A DNA stretch of 64,000 nt from Methanobacteriota archaeon (GCA_016207515.1 JACQPN010000022.1:129549-193548), one strand, 5' to 3'. Positions 19,484-46,298 are shown, numbered from the stretch's first letter. Numbers and translations: made by a program. The notes: a model not told the origin generated them from the sequence alone.

Positions 19484-19754
19484 CGTTCTCTTTCTGACGC
19501 TGGGCGCCGGGGAGGGTCTCCGTGACTCTTACTTGGACATGCTTCGCAGGTCCAATCGCGAGAGGGCTCCCGGTGGATCCCGTACGAGCGGTGGAAACTC
19601 CCCCTCCGGGCCGTGAATCTTGATGACCTGGCGCCACGCGATGCGTCGTCGCGTAACGCCCCGTGGCGAAGGTCGTCAACCGACTCGATGAGCGTGTCGC
19701 GCCACCCAATGGCGGCGCCGCGCGACGCCGGGGTCGTTTTCTTGTACCGGCCGC

Positions 19755-19985
19755 TCACTCGAAGTCCTTGACCGTGTCCACTAGGAAGCTTCGCATCATG
19801 TTGTCGGCGGGAAGCGTCACGTACCTGACCCAGCGACGCGCGCCTTCCTGGTTCACGTACCCGCGCGTTATCGTGATGAACTCGCGGCCGTCGTTCCCGT
19901 CGACGACCTTCTTGAGCGCGATCTCGATGTACCCGTTCTTTCCGAAGCTCTTCGTCTTCTCTTTGAGGACAGAGTATTCTGGCAT
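19755..19985 (-). CDS. small (76 aa) hypothetical protein
   Basis: Normal non-low-complexity composition (MPEYSVLKEKTKSFGKNGYIEIALKK...); GGTGA lies just upstream of the ATG; local GC is lower. Confidence 0.35.
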   Translation of the reverse strand: MPEYSVLKEKTKSFGKNGYIEIALKKVVDGNDGREFITITRGYVNQEGARRWVRYVTLPADNMMRSFLVDTVKDFE

Positions 19986-20142
19986 TCTCACCGAGACCAG
20001 GAAAATGCGTGGAAGTGACAATCGCTTTTTCCCGTTTGAATGGGTCGAGGCCGTCGAACCTCATTCGGCGCCTTTTTCCTGGCGGGGAGGTCGCCGAAAG
20101 TTCCCAAAACAGTCGAACGCGTGCGGGGTCGGGCTCCTGACT

Positions 20143-20580
20143 TCATTGCAGGAAAAGGGTTGCGGCGCCGCCGAGTTTCTGTGAGTTCACTATGAGGACG
20201 AAGTTGTATGCTCCAATTGTCTCGTCGTCGTGCGTCTCGCCAACGTCCACGCCGTATGCGAAATTACCGCCGAACATGTATTCGCGGACCGTCCATGCCG
20301 CTCCGTTGGGGTCCGTGAAGGCGAACGTCTCGCCCGTCGGAACGAGTGCTTGGCCGCGCGGGTCCGCGCCGCCCGTCGCGTAGACGATCTTCGGGGTCGC
20401 CAATTCGATCACGCCGAGCAGGTCGCCGCCGGTCGCCTTGCCGGAGATGACCGCGAAGTTTTCGTCCACGGCCTTCACGGTCACGAATTGTGTCGCCGAG
20501 TGCGAGGATTCCGACGTCACGGCGGCGCCCGCTGTGAGGGCGAGGAGCAAGGGAACCGCGAGCATCGTGGTGAATTTCAT
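20143..20580 (-). CDS. small secreted protein, hypothetical
   Basis: Signal peptide MKFTTMLAVPLLLALTAGAAVT; ATG 20580 chosen inside the 239-aa ORF, whose upstream part is low-complexity. Confidence 0.55.
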   Translation of the reverse strand: MKFTTMLAVPLLLALTAGAAVTSESSHSATQFVTVKAVDENFAVISGKATGGDLLGVIELATPKIVYATGGADPRGQALVPTGETFAFTDPNGAAWTVREYMFGGNFAYGVDVGETHDDETIGAYNFVLIVNSQKLGGAATLFLQ

Positions 20581-20788
20581 CGGCAACTCCAACACGATGT
20601 CGGGAGGAGCCGATATGAAGAGTTTCAAGACGGCGTATGCAAAAACAGTGTGCCCCGAGGGGATTGGAGGCGTCGACTTTTGCCGATTCAGGCGTTCCTG
20701 GAAATTAGTATATAAGTTCTTTCGTGGACCACTATTCGATTCCGCCGGAGGTGGGGCGAAACCAAGGCCGAAAGGGTGAACCGCGCGT

Positions 20789-22144
20789 TCACTTGATGGC
20801 GACGATGAACGGGCTCCCAAGCTGGTCGTCGATCTGGAATCCGCACTCGGTCGATAACCCAAAGTTGGCCTGGTTGAGGGCGTTCGTCGCCCACCAATAG
20901 GCCTCTTGGAGGCTGACCCGCTTGTCCGGCTCCGTGTACGCGGGAAGGCCCATCGGAACGTCGTTCGTCATGTTGTCCGCGGGGCCCCAACCGTCGGCGT
21001 CGCCCGAGCGCGCACCCTCATGCCATTCCTGGAAGTAAAGATGGCCCGTCTGGGTATTGCTGAAGCACTCCGTCACAATCGAGTCCGAAACGCTCACGAT
21101 GCGGCCCGGGCCCGTGACACCCGCGCTCGGCTCCTCCACGGGGCCGTAGATCTTGTCCACGAAGCCGCCGCAGAAACTGCAGGAGATCATGAGGCCGAGC
21201 GGCACGCTGGACTTGAGGGGCTTCAGGAGCTCCGCGAGTTCGCGATCGTAGAGCGCGTCGCAATCCTGGTGCTTGCCCGGTACCTGAAGGCAGATGTAGG
21301 AGCCGACACGACCGTCGTCTAAGTACGCGTTCCCGTGGTCTTCCATGAAGAGGAGGATCTCGCTTCCCGGGCGCGCGTTGGCGCCGGCGATGATCTGGGC
21401 GAGAGCGGTCTTGAAGTTCGCCCTTGTGGCGGCCGGGTACGGGGATGGCCCCGTCACTTTCTCGGTCCGACCGTCGCCGTCCCGAATCTGGCCGTCATCG
21501 TAGAGGAATCGCATGTTCTCGCGCTTGAATCCGGCGGATTCGATGGTCTTGCTGATGTCTTCGAGGAGATGGAAACCCGCGTCGCCGAGGTGGACGTCTT
21601 CCTCTTGGCCTTCCATGTCCTGCGTGCCATGCGTGATCCCGTTGTGGAGGAAGAGGGCGAATTTGATGGGGGCGATTACAGGGTTGGCGGTGTCGTTGCC
21701 GCTCGTGGTCTCGTTTCCTGGGGGATTGACCACGGGGGAGCTTGCCGGGGGTCGTGCGCCTTTTCCGGTGGGTCGCTCGTCCACCGTGACGTCGACCGCG
21801 CCAAAGAAGTCGTCTTCCTGGGTGATTATCTTGATGGTGACCCGGTAGGTGCCGTGCGACCAGTACGTGTGCTTGACTGAGGGCATCGAGTGCGATTCGG
21901 GGGAGCCGTCCCCGAAGGTCCACGTGTAGCCTGCGGGGTTCGGTGGCCGGCTGGACGCGGGCAAGAAGGTGATCTCGTCGCCTTCGAGGGGAGCGCTGGG
22001 CGAAAAGTTGATTCCGATCTCCGTGCCCGCGGGCGTGTAGAGGCTCGATAGGTCATCGTCAGGATTCGTGGGGCCAAATACGCACCCGGCGAGGCTTACC
22101 GCGAGTAGGGGGACGGTGACGAGAAGAGTAGCGCGGGCTCTCAT
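20789..22144 (-). CDS. lipoprotein with a PKD domain and a putative clan CD (caspase/legumain-like) cysteine peptidase domain
   Basis: Signal plus lipobox-like LAVSLAGC. PKD signature GYTWTFGDGSPES...HTYWSHGTYRVTIKI. A His-Gly ... Cys pair (LLFMEDHGNAY, then about 45 aa later LMISCSFCGGF) in caspase-like order. Confidence 0.55.
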   Translation of the reverse strand: MRARATLLVTVPLLAVSLAGCVFGPTNPDDDLSSLYTPAGTEIGINFSPSAPLEGDEITFLPASSRPPNPAGYTWTFGDGSPESHSMPSVKHTYWSHGTYRVTIKIITQEDDFFGAVDVTVDERPTGKGARPPASSPVVNPPGNETTSGNDTANPVIAPIKFALFLHNGITHGTQDMEGQEEDVHLGDAGFHLLEDISKTIESAGFKRENMRFLYDDGQIRDGDGRTEKVTGPSPYPAATRANFKTALAQIIAGANARPGSEILLFMEDHGNAYLDDGRVGSYICLQVPGKHQDCDALYDRELAELLKPLKSSVPLGLMISCSFCGGFVDKIYGPVEEPSAGVTGPGRIVSVSDSIVTECFSNTQTGHLYFQEWHEGARSGDADGWGPADNMTNDVPMGLPAYTEPDKRVSLQEAYWWATNALNQANFGLSTECGFQIDDQLGSPFIVAIK

Positions 22145-22161
22145 ATCCGACCTGTTTCTCT

Positions 22162-22180
22162 CTTTAAATACGATATTAAG
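22162..22180 (-). promoter_or_regulatory. TATA-like element (minus strand TTAATATCGTATTTAAAG) about 23 nt upstream of the peptidase ATG; leaderless-type
   Basis: Seen directly at the canonical spacing. Confidence 0.4.
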
Positions 22181-22395
22181 GTTTGTTGTGCAGTCGATGG
22201 ACACCGCCTTAAGAAGCCGCCACCCTGCTAAATCGCATCGTCAAGGCGGAACCTCGGAAATCCCCCCTATCTTGACCGGATCCTTTTCGGGATTCCTGTG
22301 GGCGTCAAACTTTCCGCTTCGTCTCTTACTAAGAGGCCTCAGGCAGCCACCGGGCGACCGATAGGTTCTTAGCTCCTTGTGGCGCCTATGGTTGC

Positions 22396-23451
22396 ATGAG
22401 GTGGCCGGGCGCCTGCACGATGGTGTTGTGCTCTGTGCTGGTCTCCGGGTGCGTAGGTCCCCTTTCCAATCCGGATTTGAGCCCCGTTGAGGTTTCGAAC
22501 GCCGAAGGGACCGGCCTGGATCCAGCCGATTGGAGAGAATCGGCAAGATGGCTGGGAATTCCAGCGGGAGATTCGTATGGAATCTTGAGAAAGAGATTCA
22601 CCGTCAATGACACCTACGAATTCCTGGGCTCCAAGGTACAAGGCCTTGCCATCGAGCAGGAATCATTGGCTGCCGATGCCCACGTTACCTTTTCGGTCTA
22701 TCGAATCGAAGGCGACGAAGTAGTCTGGTCGACCACCGTGACGGGTTTCTTTCCAGTGGGTGCATCGTCCAGCATTGGTGTTTTGTCGAACGGGGAACCC
22801 GTCGAACTGCTTTTCGTGGTGGCGGCGCACACCGCCTCCGCGGGACGGATACGCATCGGAATCCCCATAACGTCCATTCCGCCCAAGGTTTCGGACAACA
22901 CGACCGCGGGAAGCTGGCTCGCGCATGGTCCTTCGACGATTTCCTTTTATTTACTGCCTGGCCCAAGGTCGTCGACCAGTACCTTTGCTGACGGGCAGCC
23001 GGTTTCCAGTGGCGTAATGGAACGAGGAACGCCCTTTTCGCCCACGGGGGCGGCCGCGCCACCGTTTCTGTCCTTGAGTACGCGACACTCGGGGGGCGCT
23101 TCGGGCGTCGAATTCGCATTGTCTCTGGTGTCGGGCGCAGGAGGAGCGGCCGTCGTCAATGCGACTTGGAGCGGGGATGAGGCCCAGTGGTTTTCCACGC
23201 GAGCCACGCCGCCAAACCGGCCCGCTGGCCACGTGGCAGCGGGCTTCTACGAGGGGGAAACGGGAACCGAGGTGGCCATCACGGGCGCCCTCGCGGTCCC
23301 TTCCATTCGCTTGGTTCATGTCAGCGTGCCCTTCGATTTGGCAACGCTGGATCTCAAGCACAGGCCTTATTTCTCGGGCGCGGGGATGACGGTTCCAGCA
23401 ACGAGTGGTGGAACGTGCGTATCGGCGCCCTCAGGCGGTGTCTGTGCCTGA
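22396..23451 (+). CDS. secreted lipoprotein-like hypothetical protein (351 aa)
   Basis: N-terminus MVLCSVLVSGCVGP (lipobox-like); Ser/Thr/Gly-rich beta-type sequence. Confidence 0.5.
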   Translation: MRWPGACTMVLCSVLVSGCVGPLSNPDLSPVEVSNAEGTGLDPADWRESARWLGIPAGDSYGILRKRFTVNDTYEFLGSKVQGLAIEQESLAADAHVTFSVYRIEGDEVVWSTTVTGFFPVGASSSIGVLSNGEPVELLFVVAAHTASAGRIRIGIPITSIPPKVSDNTTAGSWLAHGPSTISFYLLPGPRSSTSTFADGQPVSSGVMERGTPFSPTGAAAPPFLSLSTRHSGGASGVEFALSLVSGAGGAAVVNATWSGDEAQWFSTRATPPNRPAGHVAAGFYEGETGTEVAITGALAVPSIRLVHVSVPFDLATLDLKHRPYFSGAGMTVPATSGGTCVSAPSGGVCA

Positions 23452-23507
23452 TATTGCTCTTCCCTGGAATCACGTTGGCCCGCTGCCGGCGACACAACAC
23501 GTCGGGG

Positions 23508-24134
23508 TTATCGCGTTTCCAACAGGCCACGACTCCCGCTAAGGAGATGCACTACCTGCCAAACAAGGACTCCGGTGGTTACGGCGATGCCAGCCAACGA
23601 AACGAGAACAAAAAGCCCGGGGAACACGGCTGGTGAGACATCCTCAAGACGAGGTGGACCGATCGCCGTGATTGCGTAAGATGCCGGAGGGCCTATGACA
23701 AGTAGAAACACACCGATTTGCGCGATCAGCCTCGGTGCGGCCAACGGAATCAGAAGAGCTAACGCGGCGGCGGCATAGTACGTTGCTGCCGCGCCAAGAC
23801 CGCTTCCGACCATTCGCATTTCGGGGGTTGGTGTAAATGGGAGTGGAAGGTACCTTACGGTGCCGGCTAAGAATATCGCCGATAGCGTGCATGTGCTTAG
23901 GACAAGGAAGCCGACCTGAGCACCCCGCCGCGTTTCCGGGAGCTGGTTGAGGATCCCGAATGCCAGGAATCCAATCAGCCACCCGAGTGGCACGAGGGGC
24001 ACACCTAGAGGAAGCGAAAATAACGACGCGGTGAGCAAAATCATGCCCACAACGTGCAGGATTCGTGGGTTTTTCACTGGTGCTTCTCCTGAATCGCTGA
24101 CTCGGTCGACCCCAATTATGCGTTTTTCCGCCAT
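23508..24134 (-). CDS. integral membrane protein (5-6 TM), hypothetical
   Basis: Hydrophobic helices throughout; ATG at codon 4 of the ORF. Confidence 0.5.
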   Translation of the reverse strand: MAEKRIIGVDRVSDSGEAPVKNPRILHVVGMILLTASLFSLPLGVPLVPLGWLIGFLAFGILNQLPETRRGAQVGFLVLSTCTLSAIFLAGTVRYLPLPFTPTPEMRMVGSGLGAAATYYAAAALALLIPLAAPRLIAQIGVFLLVIGPPASYAITAIGPPRLEDVSPAVFPGLFVLVSLAGIAVTTGVLVWQVVHLLSGSRGLLETR

Positions 24135-24291
24135 GGAATCCAAGTAACGTTATGCGGGGAATCGTGGTTCTTGACCCGCCTGTTGCCCCCCATGTCAAAT
24201 CCGCGAGTGAAGTGGTCCAGGCCGGTCCAGAGTCGTGGCGCTCATACAACCGACCGCCGTTTGGATTCCGCCCATTGTATTTTTCCGCGGA

Positions 24292-24927
24292 TCAGGGTAG
24301 CCATCCAAGTTCCCGCGAATAAGTACTCAGCAACGTGTCCGCCCCCATGCCAACCCCACAGGCGCGGCCATTCGGGCCCGTAACGCAAACGATTTCTCTA
24401 GGCACGCATGACAACCCTGCGCAGGCGGCCGCACGAGCAGCTCCGTCGGCGTCCACTTGATAGATTATCCCGCGAAACTCGCCAAGGAGCCGGGCACGAA
24501 ATCCCCATTCTGGTGGGGCGACCTGCGGATTGTAATGATCGCCGGCGTCCTTGATCATCTGAATGTAGTCGCCAGGCTCCCCTGTCCAGGTGTTGGATGT
24601 ACAACCACCCGACCAACCGCCGGAACTCCAATCGCCCTCCCCGGAGCAGGTCATCGTGTCTGGGCCGTCGCTCCATCCAGTGCCATAACAGGTCGTGACC
24701 CCGGTGCACGACGCACCTGCCCCGCTTCCGCAACCGCCACCGGCCGAAACGCTGGTCGCCCACAGGTCGTGATTCGCAGAATTGTAGACTTCGATCTTGT
24801 TTTCCTCGCTAGGGCATTGGTCTGCGCAGTCGGGGTGATCGCTGTCAAACGAGCAAGCCCCAGCATCCGCCGACGGAATGCCGGCGACCGAACCCAAAAT
24901 CATCGCGACGCAAAAAAGACGTTTCAT
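24292..24927 (-). CDS. secreted Cys/Gly-rich hypothetical protein
   Basis: Signal MKRLFCVAMILGSVAGIPSADA; about 20 Cys with CxxxC/CG motifs; GW/SGG-rich. Confidence 0.5.
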   Translation of the reverse strand: MKRLFCVAMILGSVAGIPSADAGACSFDSDHPDCADQCPSEENKIEVYNSANHDLWATSVSAGGGCGSGAGASCTGVTTCYGTGWSDGPDTMTCSGEGDWSSGGWSGGCTSNTWTGEPGDYIQMIKDAGDHYNPQVAPPEWGFRARLLGEFRGIIYQVDADGAARAAACAGLSCVPREIVCVTGPNGRACGVGMGADTLLSTYSRELGWLP

Positions 24928-25084
24928 GTGATTTTCACCCTCTCTGGCGCGTGAGGCAAAACGCCCCCCGTGTGCCGAACATGGACATCTGGGTTGATAT
25001 AGTTTGGTGGGCACGCGCAGCCGTTCCGAGCCGCCGGGAAACGTGGCGTTGGTAGTGCCTTCGGGCGCGCGGTCAAAATAGAGG

Positions 25085-27752: not shown

Positions 27753-28099
27753 TCGCCTCGACAGGATGACGCGGGGCGCGATCCGGCATCCGTCCCGGCG
27801 CACATGTTCGGCGATCGACGCCCGACTTGTGCGCGATTCCGGGTAGCCCTCCCACAGGTCGGTTTGAAGGGCGACCACTCGCTGCTCCCTCCACAAGAGG
27901 CCTCGCCTCGTGACCCCGTCGGAGCGCGTAACACGCCGTCGGCTCGGTCGTGTCGTGGCGACCTCCGATGGCTGACCTTTATCCTTGGCAGGGAACGTAT
28001 GAGCGTTTCGGCAAACGTTTAAGACCGGGAGGGGCCAGGGCTAGGTTCTGAAGAAGGCTGAAACCTTTGGCAAGAGACAATCCAAAGAGGGTGGGCCCG

Positions 28100-28660
28100 T
28101 TGGGACCGTCCAGGCTGCGACGTCGCCACATCGTCTACAACGCGATCCTGTCAAGTCTCCTGGTCGCGTCCGCCGCCATCGCGGCCGTCACGATAACGTA
28201 CAACACGTCGAGCACCATCACGCCATCGCTCAAAGCACCGCCGATGATCTGGGCGGGAGGGCCCGACAGTTCCGGCAACAATTTCGTCGCCTCGTTCTCG
28301 TTGAGCAGCAATGCCACGTATTACACGATCACGATCAAGCCGGTGCCAGAGGCGAACGTGACGTTCAGCAACTTCACGACGCTCCGGAACCAGGCGAGCG
28401 AGGCCTACACGGTCACCGTCACCGGGACGAGCGTCTCATCGAACACCAAGATACTGGAGATGAAGATGGTCTTCCACAACTACGTGTCCGATTCGGTCGT
28501 AGCGACGCTCGATTTCCGCGCGGGTTCGCCGTCCGCTAGCCTTGGAAGCGTGTCGGCCTCCGCCTACATGTACACCGTCCTCTTCATCAAACTCGACACC
28601 GGGACGAACGCTGCCGACCTGCCATCAAGCGTAACAGTGTCCCTTACCGTAGCGCCGTGA
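28100..28660 (+). CDS. cassette-1 protein A: secreted, sequon-rich, about 165-aa mature protein (TTG start with GAGGGTG SD; ORF track start 28067)
   Basis: Sec-type signal (RRRHIVYNAILSSLLVASAAIAA); 8 NxS/T sequons; paralogue of 29833..30408 (SLKAPPMIWAGGPDSSGNNFV vs SLKAPPIIWIAGPDSSGNNFV). Confidence 0.55.
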   Translation: MGPSRLRRRHIVYNAILSSLLVASAAIAAVTITYNTSSTITPSLKAPPMIWAGGPDSSGNNFVASFSLSSNATYYTITIKPVPEANVTFSNFTTLRNQASEAYTVTVTGTSVSSNTKILEMKMVFHNYVSDSVVATLDFRAGSPSASLGSVSASAYMYTVLFIKLDTGTNAADLPSSVTVSLTVAP

Positions 28661-28665
28661 TTCGC

Positions 28666-28974
28666 ATGACGGAGATCACCGACCCAGAGTTCCTCATGAA
28701 GGCCGCCACCCTCCTTGGAGTGGCCGTGAGCGCCATCGGGGCGAATTGGCAAAGGCTCGACGGTCGCGAACAGGCGTCATGTCTTATCCTCGCCGGCGCC
28801 GGGGCCCTGCTCATGATAGGGAACGCGGAGATCGCCGCCCGACCTTATGGGCTTGCGCTCGACATCGCGTACCTGGTGGCCGCCTCCGTGCCGGTGGCCC
28901 GCCACTTGGTCTACGAAGCGCTCGAGTATGGAGGAGAGCGACGCACCGGGCCGGTGGGAAATCGAAGGCGTTAG
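28666..28974 (+). CDS. cassette-1 protein B: small 2-TM membrane protein
   Basis: MTEITDPEFLMKAATLLGVAVSAIG...; paralogue of the first 100 aa of 30417..30974. Confidence 0.45.
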   Translation: MTEITDPEFLMKAATLLGVAVSAIGANWQRLDGREQASCLILAGAGALLMIGNAEIAARPYGLALDIAYLVAASVPVARHLVYEALEYGGERRTGPVGNRRR

Positions 28975-29569
28975 AACGGCCGGTGGTGACGCCACGCGCC
29001 GCACGCCGCTGATCGTCTTTCTCGTCGTAGCAGGCTTGACGCAAGGCGTGAGCATCATCTACAACACCGGTTCCGAGAACGCCGTCTCGCTGTTCCAGCA
29101 GTCGGAGATCCCGATACAACTGGCTGCCGGTCCCCAAGGGTCGACGACCATCAATGCGAACAAGACCGGTTCGCTTTCGTCAGTCACGGGAGGGCTCGCC
29201 GCCGCATCCTTCAACACCACGTTCGTCAACGACACGTCTGCGACGGCCTACCGCATCCGTTTCACGCACGTCTCGACGTCGGGGACTTTCTCGGAGTGCG
29301 TCCAGTGTGACATACAACTACGGGCGGGAACGACCACCAGCACCCAGATCAGTTACTCGCTTGGTTCACTCGTGACGAGTCAGGGCGCATACCAGACCAT
29401 CGATGCACCCGGTGGGGCGGCATCGAGTTGGCACATCTGGGCCGTCGCAACGCGAACCGTCCTCGCGGACCAGGTCGTGACCGTGGCCTACGTGATGGAA
29501 ATAGTCCCCACGGGGGGCACGTCGCCTAGTGTCGTTTACTTCAACATGACCATGAAGTTCACCGTGTAG
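28928..29569 (+). CDS. cassette-1 protein C: secreted sequon-rich protein with an N-terminal signal anchor; overlaps the end of B by 47 nt
   Basis: TPLIVFLVVAGLTQGVSI, then an S/T/N-rich beta-type body ending MKFTV; paralogue of 30979..31566 (which ends MEFTV). Confidence 0.5.
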   Translation: MEESDAPGRWEIEGVRTAGGDATRRTPLIVFLVVAGLTQGVSIIYNTGSENAVSLFQQSEIPIQLAAGPQGSTTINANKTGSLSSVTGGLAAASFNTTFVNDTSATAYRIRFTHVSTSGTFSECVQCDIQLRAGTTTSTQISYSLGSLVTSQGAYQTIDAPGGAASSWHIWAVATRTVLADQVVTVAYVMEIVPTGGTSPSVVYFNMTMKFTV

Positions 29570-29832
29570 GGGACGTTTTCTTGGCACCGCCGCATCGGTG
29601 TCGTCAAGTCGGGCCCTTTGGGCAGAATGTGCCTTTCCGCCATGCGGCGGTTCTTGGGATTTGAACCGGTCCCAGTCGTCGTCACGGCTTAAGAAGGGGC
29701 TGTTTGGAAAGGCCGCCGTGCCATTGGCCGAAGCGCCCGTTGGACGTTTTTCACAACTTGTGGGGTTTATCTCAGCGCGACATCTCAACGTTCATCGGTG
29801 TCCGATTGACGACGAGACCTTCAGCCGCGAAC

Positions 29833-30408
29833 GTGATTGGAAAGTTTGGAATCGGGTCGACGCGGGCCGAAAGCCTTCTGCCGCTTCTTACCGTGCCCGT
29901 CGCTTTGGTCCTCGTCGCCGGGGCCGCGCTCGCAGCGATGACGGTCTCGTACGCCAACACGTCCTCGACCTCACACTCGCTCAAAGCACCCCCCATAATC
30001 TGGATCGCGGGCCCCGACAGTTCAGGAAACAACTTCGTCTCCTCATGGAGCCTTTCGAGCAACGCCACGTACTTCAGCGTCACGTTGATGCCCGTCCCGG
30101 AGGCGAATGTGACATGGGGCAACCTCACGACCATCAAGAACCAGGACACGTCGGCCTACACGGTGACGGTCACCGGGAGTAGCGTGTCCGGAAGCTCCAA
30201 GGTCCTCGACTACAGGATGGAGTTTCGCAACTACGTGACGGACGCGCTCATCGGCACGCTGAACCTGCGCGATGCCTCGCCATCGGCAAGCCTCGGCTCC
30301 ATGGCGGCGGGCGCGCAGTGGTACGTAAAGACTTACGTGAAGCTCGACACGGCGACCAACGCCGCCGATCTCCCGTCGAGCGTCACCGTCTCCATCTCCC
30401 TCGCGTAG
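29833..30408 (+). CDS. cassette-2 protein A (paralogue of 28100..28660), GTG start
   Basis: Signal LLPLLTVPVALVLVAGAALAA; mature region about 60% identical to cassette-1 A by eye. Confidence 0.5.
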   Translation: MIGKFGIGSTRAESLLPLLTVPVALVLVAGAALAAMTVSYANTSSTSHSLKAPPIIWIAGPDSSGNNFVSSWSLSSNATYFSVTLMPVPEANVTWGNLTTIKNQDTSAYTVTVTGSSVSGSSKVLDYRMEFRNYVTDALIGTLNLRDASPSASLGSMAAGAQWYVKTYVKLDTATNAADLPSSVTVSISLA

Positions 30409-30416
30409 GTGAACAC

Positions 30417-30974
30417 ATGGAAACCGTCTCGACCGAGCTGATGATGAAGGCGCTGACGCTGGTGGGCGTCGTGTCTTCGTCCGCGACCATGAGCTGGACG
30501 CCTATCCCGGTGCGTCGCCGCGCGGCGCTCCTTGCGATAGCCGGTGCGGGCGTCATCCTGATGTTCATGAACGCAGCCATCGCGGGCTCCCCGCTTGCCA
30601 TGTGGGTGGACGCCGCCTACGCGACGCTTGCGATCGGTGCCTCGGGAGCATGGTCATTTGATTCGACACGGCCCGCGGGCCGGCCCATGAACGAGGCCAA
30701 GAGCCAGGCTGCCGCGAAGGCGCCGGCCGTAGGCCTTCACGCGGCGTCTGCCCTGCTCCCGCCACCCCTGTCCACTCTTGGCATCGGTCGCATCGACTGG
30801 CATCATGCGCCGGCCTTCACGCCGCTGCCGGGAAGTCCCATTCCTGACATGCCGGGCGCCGCGGTCGCCTCGACGCCGCGCCCCGCCCGCCACAGTCCAG
30901 CCGCGCCGCCGACCGTCATGGCCCGCCGCACGCGTGGCGCCGCCACCGACCAAGAGCGCCAGGGAGCGACCTGA
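30417..30974 (+). CDS. cassette-2 protein B: small membrane protein with a Pro/Ala-rich C-terminal extension
   Basis: AGGTGA lies 4 nt upstream of the ATG; METVSTELMMKALTLVGVV... is homologous to cassette-1 B; an extra ~85 aa P/A-rich tail. Confidence 0.45.
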   Translation: METVSTELMMKALTLVGVVSSSATMSWTPIPVRRRAALLAIAGAGVILMFMNAAIAGSPLAMWVDAAYATLAIGASGAWSFDSTRPAGRPMNEAKSQAAAKAPAVGLHAASALLPPPLSTLGIGRIDWHHAPAFTPLPGSPIPDMPGAAVASTPRPARHSPAAPPTVMARRTRGAATDQERQGAT

Positions 30975-30978
30975 GACC

Positions 30979-31566
30979 GTGCGCGGATCGGGCTTCGCGG
31001 CCGTCGCCATGGCACTCATGCTCATCGGCCCCGTCGAAGCCGTCTCCAGCGTCGCAGGTACGGACAACACGATAACGCATTCGCTCCTTACGGGAAGCGG
31101 CGTGCCCGTGCAGCTTTTCGCCGGCGTGGACGGAGCCACGACCGTCGGGTCCGCAAACACTAGCGTCGTCTCGCACGTCACGGGTGGTCAACTATCCGCG
31201 AGCACGTACAACACGACCCATGTGGAGAACAAGGGGTCGCAATCGGTGCGCGTCCGCATCGCGTTCGTCTCATGGACGGGAACGACCACCGATTGCGTGA
31301 CGTGCAACATCGAACTTCGACGTTCATCCACCACTGCGAGCCAGATAGTCATTTCCAACGGCGTCGTGACACAGAGCGTCGGCTCGTGGGTCACGATCGA
31401 TGGGACCGGCGGCGCCGCGACCAAATGGTACGTCTACGCGGTCGCCCGACGCACGGTCCTCGCAGACAACGTGGTTCCCGTCGATTATTCTATCGAGATC
31501 GCCCCGTCGACATCGTTGTCGCCTTCGGTCCAGTACCACAACAACACGATGGAGTTCACGGTCTGA
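30979..31566 (+). CDS. cassette-2 protein C (paralogue of 28928..29569), GTG start 5 nt after the B stop
   Basis: Signal GFAAVAMALMLIGPVEA; shared blocks (CVTCNIELR vs CVQCDIQLR, RRTVLADNVVPV vs RTVLADQVVTV); ends MEFTV. Confidence 0.5.
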   Translation: MRGSGFAAVAMALMLIGPVEAVSSVAGTDNTITHSLLTGSGVPVQLFAGVDGATTVGSANTSVVSHVTGGQLSASTYNTTHVENKGSQSVRVRIAFVSWTGTTTDCVTCNIELRRSSTTASQIVISNGVVTQSVGSWVTIDGTGGAATKWYVYAVARRTVLADNVVPVDYSIEIAPSTSLSPSVQYHNNTMEFTV

Positions 31567-31577: not shown

Positions 31578-32021
31578 CTAACCGACCGATGACGTGCAAT
31601 ATGGGCATCGCTTTGCACCCAACGGAATCGTCATGGCGCACTCGGGACAGGGTTTCGTCGTTGCCGTGCGCCCCTTCGGGCTCTCGGCGAGACGGTTGAT
31701 CGTCCGTATCATCATGAAAAGGGCCGCCGCGACTATCGTGAAGGTCATGAGGGAGTTGAGGAAAAGACCGAACCGCCAAGTGACCGCGCCGGCTGTCTTG
31801 GCAGCGTCGAGCGTCGCGTAGGGCCCCGAGGGCGCCCCCTGCCGCAAGACGACGAACAGGTTCGTGAAATCCGTCCCCCCCATGAGAAGGCCGATGACGG
31901 GCATCAGGAGGTCGTCGGTGAAAGACTTGATTATCGCCCCGAACGCAACGCCAATCACGACCCCGACGGCGAGGTCGACCACGTTCCCGCGCATGATGAA
32001 CTTCTTGAACTCTTCGATCAT
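31578..32021 (-). CDS. mscL: large-conductance mechanosensitive channel MscL with a C-terminal CxxC...CxxC zinc ribbon in place of the usual helical bundle
   Basis: MIEEFKKFIMRGNVVDLAVGVVIGVAFGAIIKSFTDDLLMPVIGLL is the MscL TM1 signature; then TM2; C-terminus CPECAMTIPLGAKRCPYC. Confidence 0.75.
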   Translation of the reverse strand: MIEEFKKFIMRGNVVDLAVGVVIGVAFGAIIKSFTDDLLMPVIGLLMGGTDFTNLFVVLRQGAPSGPYATLDAAKTAGAVTWRFGLFLNSLMTFTIVAAALFMMIRTINRLAESPKGRTATTKPCPECAMTIPLGAKRCPYCTSSVG

Positions 32022-32049
32022 GAGGGATCGTGCGGGAATCGCGACCGGC

Positions 32050-32060
32050 GTATTTATGGC
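32050..32060 (-). promoter_or_regulatory. TATA-like (minus strand CCATAAATAC) about 30 nt upstream of the mscL ATG; leaderless-type
   Basis: Seen directly. Confidence 0.35.
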
Positions 32061-32079
32061 GTTGGGGCGTGCACGAATA

Positions 32080-32112
32080 CGCGTTCCACCCGCACTGCAC
32101 AGAACTTGCACC
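32080..32112. repeat. 33-nt degenerate copy of the fdhA 3' terminus (the second copy, 32187-32219, is the genuine fdhA end)
   Basis: About 85% identical direct repeat 107 nt apart. In the fdhA-like frame the spacer copy reads CKFCAVRVERV, against EFKFCAVRVERA in fdhA. Confidence 0.5.
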
Positions 32113-32151
32113 CCGGCGACCCTGAAAAGGGTCGATCGTTCCGGCGGGGTC

Positions 32152-34953
32152 TCAGCTTCGCCTCGACCCCACCGTGTTTGGTCCTGCGCGTTCCACCCGC
32201 ACCGCACAAAACTTGAACTCAGGTATCTTCGCGTACGGGTCCAACGCATCGATTGTGAGAAGGTTCGCCGCTGCCTCCTTGAAGTGGAACGGGATGAATA
32301 CGGTCTTCTTAGGCACGCGCCGACCGACTTTCGAGCGCAACGTGACATCCCCGCGCCGCGAGGAGACCTTCACGGTCTCGCCATCCCGTATCCCGGTCAG
32401 TTCCGCATCCTCCTCGTGCATCTCGACGAACGCGTCCGGGCTAATGTCGTCGAGCACCGCGGCCCTTCGGGTCATGGTGCCGGTGTGCCAGTGCTCGAGG
32501 ACGCGCCCCGTGTTGAGGACGAACGGGAACCCTGCGTCGGGGAGCTCCTTGGCCGGCAGGAACTCGACGGCTTTGAACAGCCCCTTGCCGCGGGGCATCG
32601 TCTCGTAGATGCGCATCCCCGGTTTCGTCTCATCGCGGGCGGGCCACTGGATCGGACCCGCTTCGATGCGTTCGTAGGTTATCCCCGCGTAGTCGGGAAC
32701 GAGGCGCCGCATTTCATCGTGGATCTCCTGCGGCGAAGCGTAACGCATCTCGTAGCCCATGAGGTTCGAGATGTCCTGTATTATCATCCAATCCTGGCGC
32801 GCCTCCCCCGGGGGCTTCACGACTGCCCGGCCCAGTTGGACGTGGCGGTCGGTGTTGGCGTAGGTGCCTTCCTTTTCGAGTCCGGTCGCGGCCGGGAGGA
32901 TGACGTCCGCGTATTCGGCCGTCTCCGTCATGAAGATGTCCTGCACGGCGAGGAAATCGAGGGAGCGGATGCAATCGTCGACGTGGTTCATGTCCGGGTC
33001 GGAGAGTATGGGATTCTCGCCCATGATGTACAGGCCGCGTACGCGTCTATCCGCCGGCACGTCCGATGCAGCGGCCTTTACGATCTCGGTCACGGTCATC
33101 CCGCGTGCTGGCGCCGTCGGGACGTTCCAGGCGGCGGCGAACTTTTCGCGGACCCTCGGATCGTCGGCGCTCTGGTAGCCGGGATAGTACATGGGGATCG
33201 CCCCCATGTCGGATGCCCCTTGGACGTTGTTCTGACCTCGTAGCGGATTGAGCCCTGTTCCTTCGCGCCCGATGTTTCCTGTGAGCAGTTGAAGATTGAT
33301 AAGGCAGAAACTATTGTCGCTTCCTGTCGTGTGCTGGCTGATGCCCATCCCCCAGTAGACGGCGGCGCGTTCCGCCTGTCCGTACGCGAGCGCGGCTTCG
33401 CGAAGGAGCGCCCTCGGGACGCCCGTTATCTTTTCCACACGTTCCGCGTCGTACGGCTTCGCCGCCTCGACTAGCTCGTCGTACCCTTCAGTGTTGGAGA
33501 GCACGAACCCCGTATCGACAAGTCCCTCGTCGATGATGATCTTCATCATGCCAAGGTAGAGGGCGACGTCTGTCCCGGGGTTCTGTTGGAGATGGAATCT
33601 CGCGAAGCGGGCGAGTTCGATGCGGCGGGGATCGACCACGATGAGGGTCGTCTTGCCCCTCGCCGCCTGCTTTATCAGGTTGGCGATGACCGGGTGGTTG
33701 TCGGTCGTGTTCGACCCCGTGACGATGATGACGTCCGCCTCCTTGATGTCGTAGATGGCGTTGGTCATCGAACCAGTGCCTATCGCCGTCTGGAGCGCGT
33801 ATACGCTCGATGAGTGGCAAAGCCGCGTGCAGTGGTCGATGTGGGGTGTGCCAAGGCAGGCGCGCACCCACTTTTGGAAGATGTAATTCTCCTCGTTCGT
33901 GCATTTTGCCGACGAGAATCCAGCGAGCGAGCCGCTCCCGTGTTCGCGCTTGAGCCGTGATAGGCCGTCGGCCACCGCCTTCATCGCCTCGTCCCATGTC
34001 GCCTCCCGGAAGACATCCTCGATGCGACGGGTCCCCAGGGGACCTCGGGAAACCCCGTTCCTGCGAATCAACGGCCGTTTGAGCCGTTCCCGGTGCTCGG
34101 TGTAATCCCATCCGAAGCGTCCCTTGACGCACAGGCGCCCGTGGTTTGCGGGCCCGTCCTCCAGCCCATCGGCTCTCACGACTCTGTTGTCGAGAACGTC
34201 GTACAAAATCGCGCATCCGACGCCGCAATATGGGCAAATCGATTCAACGGTGGTCAATGCGTCCTGCCCCACAGGTTGCGGAAGCGATGCCACGCGTTTT
34301 TCGACGAGGGCGCCTGTCGGACAACGCTGTACGCATTCCCCGCAGGTGACACAGCCCGAATCGCCCATCGGGTCCGAGTAATCGAAGACGATCTCCGCGC
34401 CAAAACCGCGTCCTGCTATCCCGATGACCTCGTTCACCTGCACGTCGTCGCATGCCCGCACGCAGCGGTAACAGTTGATGCACGCTTCGGCGTTGAAGAT
34501 TATCGCGCTGTTGGAGGCGTCCTCGCTGCGAGGCCGCACGGACGATGGGAATCGCGCCTCGGCCACGCCTACCTTCGCCGCCCACTTCTCAAGCTCGCAA
34601 CCCTCCGGCATGAAATTGGCCTTGCACGGCGCATGGTCCGCCATGAGAAGCTCCAATACCATGCGGCGCGCGGCCGAAGCCTTGCCCCCGGAGGTCTTCA
34701 CTTTCATCCCGGCCTCCGCCGTCCGCGCACACGCTGGGACGAGCGCACGGCTTCCCTCGACTTCCACCATGCAAACGCGGCAAGCCCCGGCGACGGGAAG
34801 CGACGGGTGATAACATAGCGTGGGAATCTTTCGTCCGCGGCGTTCTGCGGCGAAAAGAAGGGACGAGCCCGGGGGAACGGTCACGGATTCCCCGTCCACC
34901 TCCAATGTGACGGAATCGGCTTTGTCCTCTGGCCTGTGCCGCGGCGGGCCCAC
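32152..34953 (-). CDS. fdhA: formate dehydrogenase alpha subunit (molybdopterin oxidoreductase with N-terminal 2Fe-2S/4Fe-4S ferredoxin-like domains, FdhF/FdsA type)
   Basis: 933 aa. N-terminal NuoG-like Cys clusters (CYHPSLPVAGACRVC, CINCYRCVRAC, CVTCGECVQRC). MopB core with a Cys/SeCys-position motif. C-terminal MopB barrel. Confidence 0.85.
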   Translation of the reverse strand: MGPPRHRPEDKADSVTLEVDGESVTVPPGSSLLFAAERRGRKIPTLCYHPSLPVAGACRVCMVEVEGSRALVPACARTAEAGMKVKTSGGKASAARRMVLELLMADHAPCKANFMPEGCELEKWAAKVGVAEARFPSSVRPRSEDASNSAIIFNAEACINCYRCVRACDDVQVNEVIGIAGRGFGAEIVFDYSDPMGDSGCVTCGECVQRCPTGALVEKRVASLPQPVGQDALTTVESICPYCGVGCAILYDVLDNRVVRADGLEDGPANHGRLCVKGRFGWDYTEHRERLKRPLIRRNGVSRGPLGTRRIEDVFREATWDEAMKAVADGLSRLKREHGSGSLAGFSSAKCTNEENYIFQKWVRACLGTPHIDHCTRLCHSSSVYALQTAIGTGSMTNAIYDIKEADVIIVTGSNTTDNHPVIANLIKQAARGKTTLIVVDPRRIELARFARFHLQQNPGTDVALYLGMMKIIIDEGLVDTGFVLSNTEGYDELVEAAKPYDAERVEKITGVPRALLREAALAYGQAERAAVYWGMGISQHTTGSDNSFCLINLQLLTGNIGREGTGLNPLRGQNNVQGASDMGAIPMYYPGYQSADDPRVREKFAAAWNVPTAPARGMTVTEIVKAAASDVPADRRVRGLYIMGENPILSDPDMNHVDDCIRSLDFLAVQDIFMTETAEYADVILPAATGLEKEGTYANTDRHVQLGRAVVKPPGEARQDWMIIQDISNLMGYEMRYASPQEIHDEMRRLVPDYAGITYERIEAGPIQWPARDETKPGMRIYETMPRGKGLFKAVEFLPAKELPDAGFPFVLNTGRVLEHWHTGTMTRRAAVLDDISPDAFVEMHEEDAELTGIRDGETVKVSSRRGDVTLRSKVGRRVPKKTVFIPFHFKEAAANLLTIDALDPYAKIPEFKFCAVRVERAGPNTVGSRRS

Positions 34954-36407: not shown

Positions 36408-38219
36408 TCACGTCAGGATGAACGCGAACGTCACGTACGTGAAGAGCACCATGATGAAGCTGTGGCGTAGGCCCATTACGGCGCGCCCGGATTCCATGAT
36501 GCCGGCCACCACACCGTTACCCACCGCTTGGACGAGCGTTGCCACGAAATAGAAGGTGCGGTACTCGTCGACGCTTATCTTTCCGACGCTCAGACCGGCG
36601 AGCTGGACGCTGGACCCTCCGCCGACGCCGGCCGTCGCTTGCGCGATCTGGGGGACGAACGTCCCGTAAAGCGTCCCAGCGATGCCAAGGAAGACGAGGA
36701 ACGCGATGTAGATGATGGCCGTGTAAAGAAGCATCGACGTCGCCCTCTCGGTCTCAAGGTTCTTTATCTCCCGCGCGTCGCGCGCGGCCGCAAGGAGGAC
36801 GTCCGTCACGTTTCCGCCTGTTCGCGACGCTTCAAGGATGAGTGCCACGGCCCGTTCGATGAGCGGGGTCTTCGCCCTTTCGCCGAAGCGCTCCAGCGCA
36901 TCATCGAAGGCGACGTTCCAGCTCAACTGGTCCGCCATGCGGACGATCTCGGGTGTCAGGGCCCCGTATTCCCCCTTCGAGGCGATCTTCACCGCGGCCG
37001 GGAGTGTGAGCCCGGCCTTGCGGCTTGCCGCCAGGTCTCGAAGGAAATCGGGGAAGCGTTCCTCGAGCCGTTTCACGCGGCCGCGTCGCGACGCGGCGTA
37101 GAACCCGTATGGCCCGATGAAGACGAGGATGGAGAACGTGAGGAAGTCGAGCCAACGCGTGGTCGGGATGCCAAGAAGAGCTATGCCCGCAAACAGTGCG
37201 CCTGCGGTCGCAAGGAGGACCCCGCCAAGAAGACCCGAGATCGCAAGGAGGAGGAGGCCCGTGCCGGTCTCCGTTTCCGTCGGGACCTTGTAAAGCGGCG
37301 TCGAAGGCGCCCGGGCCAGCCTGAACGAGGCGACGACGCTCGCGATGAGGACGAGGACGACGAACCCGAAGACCCCGAGCAGTACGGAATTGCGCGGGAT
37401 CTCTTGGAGTATAGCGACGACACCCACCCCGAAGACGAGGAGGAGCAAGACGACGAGGAAGAGAAGGGCGAACGCGGTGACCGCCGGGAACGTGACCGCG
37501 GAGGCACGCGACAGGCCTGTGGTCGCTCCGTAAGTCTCGCGTCGTTCCGTGAAGACGCTGTAGATGGTCGGCAGCGAGCGCGCGATGAAAAGGGTGAGGC
37601 TGAAAGTCACGTAGCCGGCGAGAAGGAGAAGCGGCGAATCACCTGGGTTGAGAGTGAGAACACCGACGACCGAACCACCGACGGAAGAGGCCCAGAATGC
37701 GGCCGCCGCAAGGACAAGCGTGAGGCCGAGGCCGACGATCTGGAACGGCCCCTCAAGGCCTGTCGAGATGCGTTCCGGCGGGCTTTTCAGGGAGAAGAAG
37801 TGCGCGGCGGCGGAATCAAGCGCCAATACGGCGACGAGGATGGTCGCGATGCGCAGTATGGGCGTGGAGGGGACGCTTGCACCCGTGCGAGTGAACAGGC
37901 CGGCGACGATGACCGTGATGGAGAAGAGCGCGAGGAGGTTGAGTAGGACCGCGGACGACTTGAGCGGGCTCCAATAGCGTGACAGCTCGCGGCGCACGTA
38001 GGGCGTCGTCGGTCTTTTCTGCTCCAACGCCTCGATGCCGCGCCCGAGTTGGATCGTCGCCACGTTCACGACCAACCCGGCGACCGAGAGGAGGATCCCG
38101 CGAGCGTAGGTCGCGTCCGTGTTCGCGATCACGGCGCCGGCGACCGTAAGGAGTGTGGCGAGGACCAGGCCTGCAAGGAGGAGCGCTTCCCGGGTCTTTC
38201 GCTCGATGGCCAACTTCAC
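36408..38219 (-). CDS. type IV pilus/archaellum platform protein, FlaJ/TadC-like second half (T2SSF domain) with an unusual ~370-aa multi-TM N-terminal extension
   Basis: T2SSF-type segment FPDFLRDLAASRKAGLTLPAAVKIA...TGGNVTDVLLAAARDAREI; start overlaps the upstream gene (ATGA). Confidence 0.7.
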   Translation of the reverse strand: MKLAIERKTREALLLAGLVLATLLTVAGAVIANTDATYARGILLSVAGLVVNVATIQLGRGIEALEQKRPTTPYVRRELSRYWSPLKSSAVLLNLLALFSITVIVAGLFTRTGASVPSTPILRIATILVAVLALDSAAAHFFSLKSPPERISTGLEGPFQIVGLGLTLVLAAAAFWASSVGGSVVGVLTLNPGDSPLLLLAGYVTFSLTLFIARSLPTIYSVFTERRETYGATTGLSRASAVTFPAVTAFALLFLVVLLLLVFGVGVVAILQEIPRNSVLLGVFGFVVLVLIASVVASFRLARAPSTPLYKVPTETETGTGLLLLAISGLLGGVLLATAGALFAGIALLGIPTTRWLDFLTFSILVFIGPYGFYAASRRGRVKRLEERFPDFLRDLAASRKAGLTLPAAVKIASKGEYGALTPEIVRMADQLSWNVAFDDALERFGERAKTPLIERAVALILEASRTGGNVTDVLLAAARDAREIKNLETERATSMLLYTAIIYIAFLVFLGIAGTLYGTFVPQIAQATAGVGGGSSVQLAGLSVGKISVDEYRTFYFVATLVQAVGNGVVAGIMESGRAVMGLRHSFIMVLFTYVTFAFILT

Positions 38220-39049
38220 GCCTCCGGGGTGATGGCCTTGATCGTCACGGCGAAACCCGCCTGCGCGACGGGTAACAGTATGAGCATCATGATGTACCCG
38301 ATCGTGATGGCGGACCGGCCGCCGCTCCCGAAGGCCGTCATCACAGTGAGCAGCACGATGAGGAGGAGCGGTGCCGCGACGACCACGGTCACGTAGGACT
38401 CGGCGAGGACCGCGAGGCTCTCGATGAACTTCTTCTGGTCCTGCCTGTTCTCGTAGACGTACTGCTCGCTCTTCGTGAGGAAGTAGTTCTTGAGATCGGA
38501 CCCTGATTGGATGGCCGTGATCGCCCCTTGGAGAAGGTCCTGGAATTTGACCGAGGGGCTCCGATCGATCGCCGCCGTGAGGGCCGTGACGATGTCGCGG
38601 CCCAAGATCGTGAGGTCGCGGCTGATGTAAGCGGATTCGTTCGCGACCTCACCGTAGATGGGTTGGCGCGCAAGGCTTCCGAAGATCTTGTCCGGGGTTA
38701 TCCCGGCCGAGGCGAGGGTGGCGATGTAGTTGAGAGCGTAGGGGAGCTTCGCGTCGATGTCGCGGGCCCTGCCCGAGGCGCGGATGTCGGGGACCACGAA
38801 CGTGAGAAGGTAGATGGTGAACGCGAGGACCATCGGAAGGGGGACGAGGACCGCGAAGACGACGGGCGGCACGACCACGCTTTTCGCGAAGACCAGGATC
38901 GCGAGGATCAATATCGGAAGCAGGCTCGCGGCGAACGCGATCACCATGTTCATGTAGGAATAGCTGAGGTAGAGCTCGGGCCGCAAGTCGATCTGGGCCT
39001 TTTGGAGCGAGAAGCGCAGGTGCACGTTGCTACGCGCACTACGTTGCAC
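38216..39049 (-). CDS. type IV pilus/archaellum platform protein, FlaJ/TadB-like first half (single T2SSF domain, 277 aa)
   Basis: KLPYALNYIATLASAGITPDKIFGSLARQPIYGEVANESAYISRDLTILGRDIVTAL matches the T2SSF/GspF domain; 3 TM. Confidence 0.7.
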   Translation of the reverse strand: MQRSARSNVHLRFSLQKAQIDLRPELYLSYSYMNMVIAFAASLLPILILAILVFAKSVVVPPVVFAVLVPLPMVLAFTIYLLTFVVPDIRASGRARDIDAKLPYALNYIATLASAGITPDKIFGSLARQPIYGEVANESAYISRDLTILGRDIVTALTAAIDRSPSVKFQDLLQGAITAIQSGSDLKNYFLTKSEQYVYENRQDQKKFIESLAVLAESYVTVVVAAPLLLIVLLTVMTAFGSGGRSAITIGYIMMLILLPVAQAGFAVTIKAITPEA

Positions 39050-39139
39050 CGAGCGCCCGAAGACGCGGTAGGCGAAACGCTGGTACTTAGTCGGTGGAAT
39101 GGTCAGCGCCCCCGCTTGTTACCGCGCCGTGTGGCGGCA

Positions 39140-41014: not shown

Positions 41015-41030
41015 GTCGTTTCACCTCGCT

Positions 41031-41060
41031 GGAATTTAAGCGGGCCTGGTAAATGAAAAT
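41031..41060 (-). promoter_or_regulatory. TATA-like elements (minus strand TTTTCATTTACC / CTTAAATTCC) 20-45 nt upstream of flaI
   Basis: AT-rich patch in the 154-nt spacer, suggesting flaI has its own promoter separate from the pilin genes. Confidence 0.3.
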
Positions 41061-41168
41061 GCCGGATTACTGACGGGGCCGAAAGAGTGGCCGCCGATGG
41101 TTTTTCCGGAACCCCACGAGGGGTCGCCGCGCGTCGCGCCCATGGGCCCCCGACGCGGTGTTTGCCGA

Positions 41169-46165: not shown

Positions 46166-46232
46166 CTTCACGCGCACCCCCATCTGGTGCGAGTCACTAG
46201 TCCAACCATCCAACGCCACGCCTTCGGCGCTT

Positions 46233-46243: not shown

Positions 46244-46298
46244 CCAGCCTGAAAACGGTTGCCATTTATCCAGGTTTGACGATGGAAAAGCAAAGACT

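Follow-up and report, generated by a model that had tools for sequence, protein, structure and literature searches.

We analyzed a 64,000-nucleotide stretch of DNA from a Methanobacteriota archaeon (GCA_016207515.1 JACQPN010000022.1:129549-193548), which is referred to here as the window, and focused on six co-directional open reading frames (ORFs) located on the + strand at positions 28067-31566. The six ORFs formed two units that encode the same trio of proteins (A, B, and C), and their order was A1-B1-C1-A2-B2-C2. Our results suggested, with a probability of about 0.62, that each of the two cassettes produces an extracellular filament of the archaeal thread or bundling-pilus type, a member of the TasA superfamily whose assembly requires neither a chaperone nor an usher. 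Protein A is probably the major subunit of this filament and would polymerize via donor-strand complementation. An earlier note, made from the sequence of the window alone, had proposed that the tandem cassette encodes a heteromeric glycosylated surface fiber. The evidence presented here favored this reading, in which the polymerization and glycosylation of A and the functions assigned to C and B are inferred. Structures of donor-strand filaments from the TasA superfamily have come only from Bacillus, haloarchaea, and hyperthermophilic Thermoproteota. If our reading is true, thread-like filaments extend to mesophilic Thermoplasmatota of soil and groundwater.

Protein A resembles subunits of donor-strand filaments

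Pfam and NCBIfam scans of all six cassette proteins yielded nothing meaningful. Neither A nor C had a Pfam match at an E value of ≤1, so neither of them matched PF12389 (Peptidase_M73), and no significant match was found when PDB sequences were searched with A1, C1, a narrow A profile, or the remote A-family member P0099. The A1 structure was modeled with AlphaFold2 (AF2) from a 30-sequence alignment, and the model had a mean predicted local distance difference test (pLDDT) score of 84.8. It contained a helix (residues 17-35), a segment that lay outside the fold and was unstructured in the monomer (residues 36-59), and an 11-strand β-sandwich (residues 60-196).

Only four proteins showed strong structural matches to the A model: Saci_0406 (7pnb), Hyper2 (9bac/9bab), AbpA (7ueg), and CanX (9h8b). 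The match scores were 9.3 for Hyper2 (9bac), 9.2 for AbpA, and 8.7 for CanX, and the next match was a generic GOLD domain with a score of 7.6. The same four proteins were the only hits with an E value of ≤1e-3 when Foldseek, an independent method, was used. The β-sandwich head of A could be superimposed on that of Saci_0406, and its jelly-roll resembled those of CanX and Hyper2. All four proteins are subunits of extracellular filaments that were solved via cryo-electron microscopy and that polymerize through donor strands; they belong to the TasA superfamily and share less than 20% mutual identity. Thus, the statement in the earlier note that A, B, and C show no motif of a known pilin, flagellin, S-layer, or TasA-like family held for Pfam, NCBIfam, and PDB sequence searches, but it did not hold for the structure of A. 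Because this structure matched characterized filament subunits, an outcome that the earlier note had named as a refutation, the module is not undescribed in kind.

When the A-family profile was broadened, the top PDB sequence hit was 7pnb_A (Saci_0406), with an E value of 0.024 and a score of 17.6 bits over the N-terminal half only. The signal peptide, the mature N-terminus, and an APPxx[FW] motif were in register in this alignment, and we regard the profile match as corroboration of the putative relationship, not proof of it. The GPDSSGN loop of A aligned with the Saci_0406 loop that carries Asn57, which is the isopeptide acceptor in threads (PMC9715654). It is a matter of speculation whether A filaments might be covalently cross-linked via this loop. 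The invariant GPDSSGN loop and E95 are also candidates, and only candidates, for calcium-binding residues.

The A1 ORF extends from 28067 to 28660, and its likely start is TTG 28100, which yields a 186-aa protein and matches the annotation of the metagenome-assembled genome (MAG). The predicted signal peptide ends at about 28186, with ...SAAIAA before the presumed cut and VT after it. This is followed by the conserved N-terminal tail (28187-28243), the candidate donor strand, and by the 11-strand β-sandwich head (28244-28657). The tail (residues 41-59) corresponds to the 19 residues past the predicted cut (VTITYNTSSTITPSLKAPP), is β-prone, and lies outside the monomer fold. As judged by mean top-residue frequency, its conservation was 0.65, compared to 0.70 for the head and 0.20 for the n-region of the signal; Y45 was invariant, and K56, P58, and P59 were at least 90% conserved. 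Since a mere linker would not be so conserved and a donor strand would, we read the tail as a probable donor strand.

As the earlier note had pointed out, A1 and A2 both contain the sequence SLKAPP(M/I)IW..GPDSSGNNFV. The same note had counted eight N-x-S/T sequons in A; A1 and A2 each contain four. This corresponds to about 2.2 sequons per 100 aa, which is approximately 10 times the density in cytoplasmic proteins encoded in the window (0 to 0.4). Sequons N82, N97, and N102 were invariant or nearly so.

Export signal of A and the neighboring type IV pilus-like locus

The predicted signal in A consisted of a basic n-region, a hydrophobic helix (residues 17-35), and a conserved ...SAA(V/I)A(A/S)/V site (the slash marks the presumed cut), and this arrangement was found in 30 homologues. 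The basic n-region and the small-x-small site, together with the fact that a twin arginine was not conserved in the A family, fit export of A by Sec and cleavage by signal peptidase I. Homologues of A had no conserved K/R-G/A class III cleavage site, and A did not match the archaeal pilin N-terminal domain PF07790.

These findings bear on the idea that A and C are pilins of a type IV pilus/Tad-like machinery encoded nearby (36408-46399), with the N-terminal helix kept as the filament core. Besides a giant pilin-like protein, the machinery includes an ATPase and two T2SSF proteins, and archaeal pilins also have β-sandwich heads. Moreover, a related locus (L019, 2-3663) carries A-A-B directly 3' of a gene for a FlaJ/TadC-like (T2SSF-type) membrane protein on the same strand; this locus lies at a contig end, and no C gene was visible before the end. 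However, the T2SSF protein in L019 was not orthologous to the T2SSF protein of the window with which it was compared (22% identity), and most related loci lacked type IV pilus genes within 6 kb. The earlier note had linked the cassette to the Tad/Fla-like locus and placed it 3.5 kb away. In fact, the region with the type IV pilus genes extends from 36408 onward, which is 4.8 kb off, the genes are on the opposite strand, and the linkage was not conserved. In addition, the lack of a PF07790 match in A stood in contrast to the neighboring 1453-aa protein, which has one. The conserved Ala-x-Ala is of the signal peptidase I type, and pilins were not among the structural matches of A. Based on the type of signal peptide, the missing PF07790 and pilin matches, and the unconserved linkage, we rejected a type IV pilin identity for A and C, and we consider this the least probable of the explanations discussed here.

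Comparison with known filaments

The closest comparison was with the threads of Sulfolobus acidocaldarius, in which Saci_0406 is the major subunit and Saci_0405 is the putative cap (PDB 7PNB; PMC9715654). Each thread subunit carries five glycans, and a mature N-terminal Asp and a YYY motif (the isopeptide donor) are present in all reported homologues (PMC9715654). Protein A and thread subunits are alike in their mature size (about 160 to 180 residues), in their Sec-type signal with a signal peptidase I site, in the N-terminal tail followed by an 11-strand β-sandwich, in the APPxx[FW] motif that follows the tail in register, and in having several sequons. In both cases, an adjoining co-directional paralogue may serve as the cap, and the locus lacks a chaperone, an usher, and a dedicated peptidase. 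In contrast, A and Saci_0406 share only 17% identity, with a sequence similarity that does not reach significance (E value of 0.024), and the mature N-terminus of A reads Val-Thr-Ile-Thr-Tyr, compared to Asp-Val-Ile-Tyr-Tyr-Tyr in threads. Because the mature N-termini differ, the Asp24-Asn57 isopeptide was not evidently conserved in A. Other differences were that C has a normal signal peptide and Saci_0405 has none, that B was unlike anything reported in the thread cluster, and that the hosts of the cassette are mesophilic Thermoplasmatota of soil and groundwater instead of Sulfolobales.

The cassette also shared features with the archaeal bundling pili (ABP), which are formed by AbpA and AbpB in Pyrobaculum calidifontis (PDB 7UEG; PMC9245690), and with the bacterial TasA/TapA/SipW system. 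In each case, a secreted jelly-roll subunit that has (or, for A, is predicted to have) an N-terminal donor strand is accompanied by another secreted protein with an accessory role; the operons also encode small polytopic membrane proteins, and processing is presumed to involve a generic signal peptidase. In contrast to those systems, the cassette proteins had no PF12389 match, each unit contains three genes compared to about eight, and the accessory role would fall to C, a paralogue of the major subunit and not a macroglobulin-type sandwich like TapA. A SipW-like gene was absent from the cassette and was present in remote Desulfurococcales relatives of A. No dedicated signal peptidase gene was found in the cassette or in the examined flanks of related A-B-C loci, and a motif scan of the window detected no signal peptidase I box in a plausible gene.

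Two other kinds of filaments were more distant. Cannulae are built from CanA/CanX in Pyrodictium and from Hyper2 in Hyperthermus (PDB 9H8B and 9BAB/9BAC; bioRxiv 10.1101/2024.12.30.630787). Unlike the proposed filament, cannula proteins form wide calcium-dependent tubes and are limited to the Pyrodictiaceae, and they had no sequence-level relation to A. The haloarchaeal Tat-fimbriae (Tafi), which contain TafA/TafE (PMC12337348), resemble the proposed system in that they are donor-strand filaments in which minor pilins accompany the major ones; TafF is their proposed membrane anchor, and a tip protein is also present. However, Tafi use Tat export, another variant of the fold, and a dedicated peptidase (TafD/TafG); the twin arginine was unconserved in A, and no Tafi structure was among the top matches of A.

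Protein A thus has the fold and architecture of these subunits, but it lacks the thread signature and PF12389, and its cassette has no SipW-type peptidase, which separates it from the Saci_0406, AbpA, CanX, and TasA families. We conclude that A represents a new family within the TasA superfamily, and that it occurs in a phylum and habitat from which no such filaments have been described; the only literature that we found pairing Thermoplasmatota with donor strands was the 2022 ABP survey, which dealt with PF12389 proteins. The cassette is also distinct in having a paralogous minor subunit with a CxxC motif and a novel small membrane protein.

Protein C is a distant paralogue of A

A further correction to the earlier note is that A and C are themselves related. 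When the C and A family alignments were compared with hhalign, they matched with a probability of 96.3% and an E value of 1.9e-9 over 158 columns, and a C hidden Markov model matched A proteins at about 1e-6. These alignments identify C as a distant, old paralogue of A. The mature N-terminus of C1 (SIIYNTGS...SL) was A-like, and the pattern h-x-h-x-Y-x-T-x-S-T..L-S-L was common to the mature N-termini of A and C. As for the signal, C had been described as signal-anchored; instead, it has a cleavable-looking signal peptide in which small residues precede the conserved mature N-terminus.

Three features set C apart from A. The motif IPxQLAAGPDG replaced the APPxxWxAGPDSSGN of A, a CxxC was invariant in all C homologues, and C ran about 19 residues past the end of A (SPSVVYFNMTMKFTV; family form SPSVxYxNMTMxFTV). 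The M(K/E)FTV ending that had been reported for C was found in both copies. The extra C-terminal strand and the invariant CxxC make it likely, given that C is a homologue of A, that C is a minor or cap subunit; as a specific assignment, the terminal or cap role is tentative.

The CxxC also raises the possibility that A, B, and C work together outside the cytoplasm as a metal or redox module instead of forming a structural fiber; the CxxC of C would bind copper or serve as a thiol-disulfide site, and A and B would be its partners. One C homologue (L001, 6970-7800, on a 1.26-Mb metagenome contig) has a C-terminal plastocyanin/azurin-type domain (PF00127; 21.4 bits with a cut-off of 21.2). This cupredoxin domain contains a C-x2-H-x4-M ligand-like motif and is fused past the normal C end. 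Furthermore, weak matches of the broadened A profile included CopC and copper-chaperone entries (E values of 0.3 to 0.9). However, the copper-protein matches were not significant, the cupredoxin fusion was confined to one of about a dozen loci, the invariant residues of A include no Cys and no His, and the A structure points to filament subunits. In a minor pilin, the CxxC might just as well form a structural disulfide or hold a metal. A metal or redox module is therefore very unlikely in our view.

Protein B is a new small membrane protein

Protein B has a core of about 90 residues with three hydrophobic segments in all homologues, not the two transmembrane segments described earlier. Its N-terminus is slightly acidic, and its C-terminal tail is basic, Pro/Ala-rich in most homologues, and varies in length from a few residues to about 110. 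The tail of B1 is short and basic. That of B2 is about 100 aa long, basic, and Pro/Ala-rich, in agreement with the tail noted before for the second copy. Polar residues were conserved inside the hydrophobic segments (MK..T..GV, GVALM..NA, and D..Y). Pfam, NCBIfam, and a B profile run against the remote loci detected no B relatives outside A-B-C cassettes. Thus, B is a new small membrane protein; the idea that it is a membrane anchor or assembly platform for the filament is a doubtful one at present.

The A-B-C trio recurs in archaeal genomes with varying flanks

Close homologues of A were rare: only 30 were found among 5.8 billion clustered proteins, and all of them were from Thermoplasmatota or "Methanobacteriota" MAGs or from unnamed metagenome contigs. 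Similarly, only five loci were found among 185,579 species-representative genomes. Word-based searches for C yielded only five proteins, and more homologues were recovered through synteny (roughly 15 C homologues were obtained in this way); C diverges much faster than A. The order A-B-C was found in L001, L002/L003/L008, L004/L010, L011, and L013/L014, and C came after A (and B) in every complete cassette. In L005/L009 and L012, the order was A-C without B. The largest local expansion of A was in L007 (1899-5643 on a "Methanobacteriota archaeon" contig), which has the order A-?-C-A-A-A, with four A genes, one C gene, and no recognizable B. The gene neighbors of the trio varied from locus to locus, which indicates that A-B-C is a conserved autonomous module. 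Co-occurrence of A, B, and C in other archaeal genomes, which the earlier note had suggested as a check, was therefore confirmed with unrelated flanks. One typical A-B-C locus (L002/L008) was on a 106-kb contig (JAJPHT010000014.1) that was deposited as "Proteobacteria bacterium isolate Centralia_MAG_189." Because the cassette was otherwise found only in archaeal MAGs, the label or binning of this contig may be wrong.

To examine the wider A family, 1.8 billion representative proteins (clusters at 50% identity) were searched exhaustively with the A profile and HMMER. This search yielded 76 representative clusters at E values of ≤1e-3, 31 of them at ≤1e-10. Most of the aligned members were 170 to 210 aa long and had the same signal, tail, and PPxx[FW] layout. 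Pfam found no common family among 69 extended members, and none of the 69 matched PF12389. Thus, a Pfam-less family of about 76 clusters (50% identity) was defined, and six hypothetical proteins in the window gained a functional label along with their relatives.

Two of the more distant loci (L020, 74-3348, and L021, 103-2153) contain several A-like genes, one C-like gene, and an A-C fusion that encodes a two-domain protein of 337 to 340 aa. By the "Rosetta stone" argument, the fusion indicates that domains of the A and C types act together in a single structure. The L020 cluster is followed by a gene for a DUF131 membrane protein.

In still more remote members (L015-L018, including L017:4195-7637 and L016:1714-5227), one of which is from a Desulfurococcales MAG, the A-like gene heads a four-gene unit. 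The first gene encodes a pilin-like protein of about 190 aa with the mature N-terminus FAYYP or FVYNP, and the second encodes a secreted protein of 375 to 393 aa with a PPVWF-type motif. The third product (377 to 383 aa) is signal-peptidase-I-like, with an SGxSMxPTL box and a Peptidase_S26 match just below the cut-off, and the fourth is a polytopic membrane protein of 190 aa. The overall layout of this unit recalls tapA-sipW-tasA. The B profile revealed no relation between B and the membrane proteins of these remote loci.

Proposed assembly pathway and competing explanations

In the pathway that we propose, A would be secreted via Sec, the housekeeping signal peptidase I would cleave it past the conserved Ala-x-Ala, and its three near-invariant sequons would be N-glycosylated. 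Head-to-tail polymerization of A would then occur via donor-strand complementation, with the β-prone N-terminal tail of one subunit entering the β-sandwich of the next. Protein C would be present in few copies at the filament terminus, as a cap or nucleator, following the logic of Saci_0405, TapA, or AbpB. Protein B would be a three-pass membrane protein with its Pro/Ala-rich tail in the cytoplasm, and it may be the anchor or the assembly site. The two cassettes might yield two filament isoforms or mixed filaments.

Two analogies are consistent with a filament. First, A genes multiply in tandem as pilin genes do, with four in L007, two in L019, and two units in the window. Second, the Desulfurococcales relatives of A adjoin signal-peptidase-I-like genes, much as TasA adjoins SipW.

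Several points weigh against the filament proposal. The proposed filament is predicted from genes and a monomer model, and β-sandwich and jelly-roll folds are also found in surface proteins that do not polymerize. The sequence homology between A and thread subunits is sub-significant, as the E value of 0.024 derives partly from the signal-peptide score. Protein A also lacks the thread hallmarks of a mature N-terminal Asp and a YYY motif: its predicted mature N-terminus (V-T-I-T-Y-N-T) has no Asp, and it has a single invariant Tyr (Y45) in place of YYY. The AF2 model of C was unreliable (pLDDT of 47), so the proposed cap role depends on the alignment with A. Finally, none of the known thread, ABP, or Tafi loci encodes a homologue of B, and B was absent from some cassettes (L005/L009, L007, and L012).

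Given that the fold is not restricted to polymerizing proteins, A and C could instead be non-polymerizing surface glycoproteins with binding or adhesion functions in association with the envelope or S-layer. Their similarity to filament subunits would then reflect a fold shared by descent, and B would tether or chaperone them. We consider this explanation unlikely. In both structure comparison methods, the four filament subunits stood clearly apart from generic β-sandwiches, a simple linker would not need the conserved β-prone segment outside the A fold, and tandem A paralogues and A-C fusions are typical of pilus loci.

A more ambitious version of the filament proposal, which we also regard as unlikely as a joint claim, is that A-B-C is a minimal self-contained donor-strand filament system. 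Here, B would be the missing membrane component that replaces the bacterial usher or sortase, and C would be a terminal subunit that naturally complements itself, with its groove occupied by its additional C-terminal strand in the manner of engineered "dsc" pilins. The assembly and anchoring of filaments in archaea were called open in the thread and bundling-pilus papers, and the question becomes testable with a three-gene unit that lends itself to heterologous expression. If the minimal-system version is true, it would provide a tractable answer to how nucleation, anchoring, and termination occur without a chaperone or usher.

Organization of the cassette and age of the duplication

Several start sites were reassigned, and the preferred starts are A1 28100, C1 28928, A2 29833, B2 30417, and C2 30979. 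Downstream of A1, the B1 gene (28657..28974) overlaps the A1 stop; it starts at GTG 28657 or ATG 28666 and encodes 102 to 105 aa. The C1 gene (28928..29569) starts with ATG and encodes 213 aa, and its 5' part overlaps the 3' end of B1. In the second unit, A2 (29833..30408) starts with GTG and encodes 191 aa in an ORF that is open from 29704, B2 (30417..30974) starts with ATG and encodes 185 aa, and C2 (30979..31566) starts with GTG and encodes 195 aa; the public gene call for C2 begins at 31009. All of these genes are on the + strand. The window matches a MAG from Thermoplasmatota ("Euryarchaeota archaeon"), in which the proteins are annotated as HY556_10125 to HY556_10140. As had been noted before, neighboring genes within each unit overlap or abut, and Shine-Dalgarno-like motifs precede two of the preferred starts (GAGGGTG ahead of TTG 28100 in A1 and AGGTGA ahead of ATG 30417 in B2). 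The units are separated by a 263-bp intergenic spacer (29570..29832, +), in which a T-rich stretch directly follows the stop codon of C1 and a TTTAT element precedes A2. These two features suggest that unit 2 may be transcribed separately from unit 1.

BLASTP comparisons confirmed that the two units consist of three homologous pairs. The identities were 61% over 156 aa for A1/A2 (E value of 3e-62), 42% over 67 aa for B1/B2 (1e-9), and 41% over 228 aa for C1/C2 (4e-48). No DNA-level repeat was found between the units. For each of the three pairs, the synonymous substitution rate (dS) was saturated (1.1 to 2.2), and the ratio of nonsynonymous to synonymous rates (dN/dS) was about 0.3 to 0.36, which indicates that the duplication is old and that both copies are under purifying selection. 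The earlier note had reached the same view of the duplication. In a neighbor-joining tree, A1 clustered with P0002 and A2 clustered with P0018; A1 and A2 did not cluster together. The window contains no additional A, B, or C paralogues.

All six ORFs showed the G+C bias at third codon positions that is seen in genuine genes (the G+C content of the window is 63%). The possibility that the ORFs are not real was ruled out by this bias, by conservation across about a dozen loci, and by the dN/dS values.

Genes surrounding the cassette

The type IV pilus-like locus (36408-46399) is on the - strand. It encodes a T2SSE ATPase (39140-41014), two T2SSF proteins (38216-39049 and 36408-38219), and the 1453-aa protein (42038-46399). 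The latter, which is unusually large for a pilin-like protein, combines the N-terminal domain of archaeal type IV pilins with FN3-like domains and has 36 sequons. Genes for MscL, a formate-dehydrogenase-like protein, and a histidine kinase are located between the cassette and the type IV pilus genes. The MscL gene (31578-32348, -) is directly downstream of C2 and convergent with it; its product has a C-terminal zinc-ribbon (UPF0547-like), and a long N-terminal extension of the ORF is probably left untranslated.

Upstream of the cassette, a 1652-aa ORF (7740-12698, -) with 46 sequons and a faint CARDB match is a candidate S-layer protein or large surface glycoprotein. The region from 18683 to 25014 contains a run of genes for predicted secreted or lipoprotein-like proteins without a family. 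These include a protein with a PKD domain and an LAGC lipobox-like site (20789-22204), a protein with an LVSGC site (22396-23451), a polytopic membrane protein (23508-24143), and a Cys/Gly-rich protein (24292-25014). Genes that are typically archaeal, namely, those for UPF0179, DUF63, and FKBP26, were also found among the neighbors in the window.

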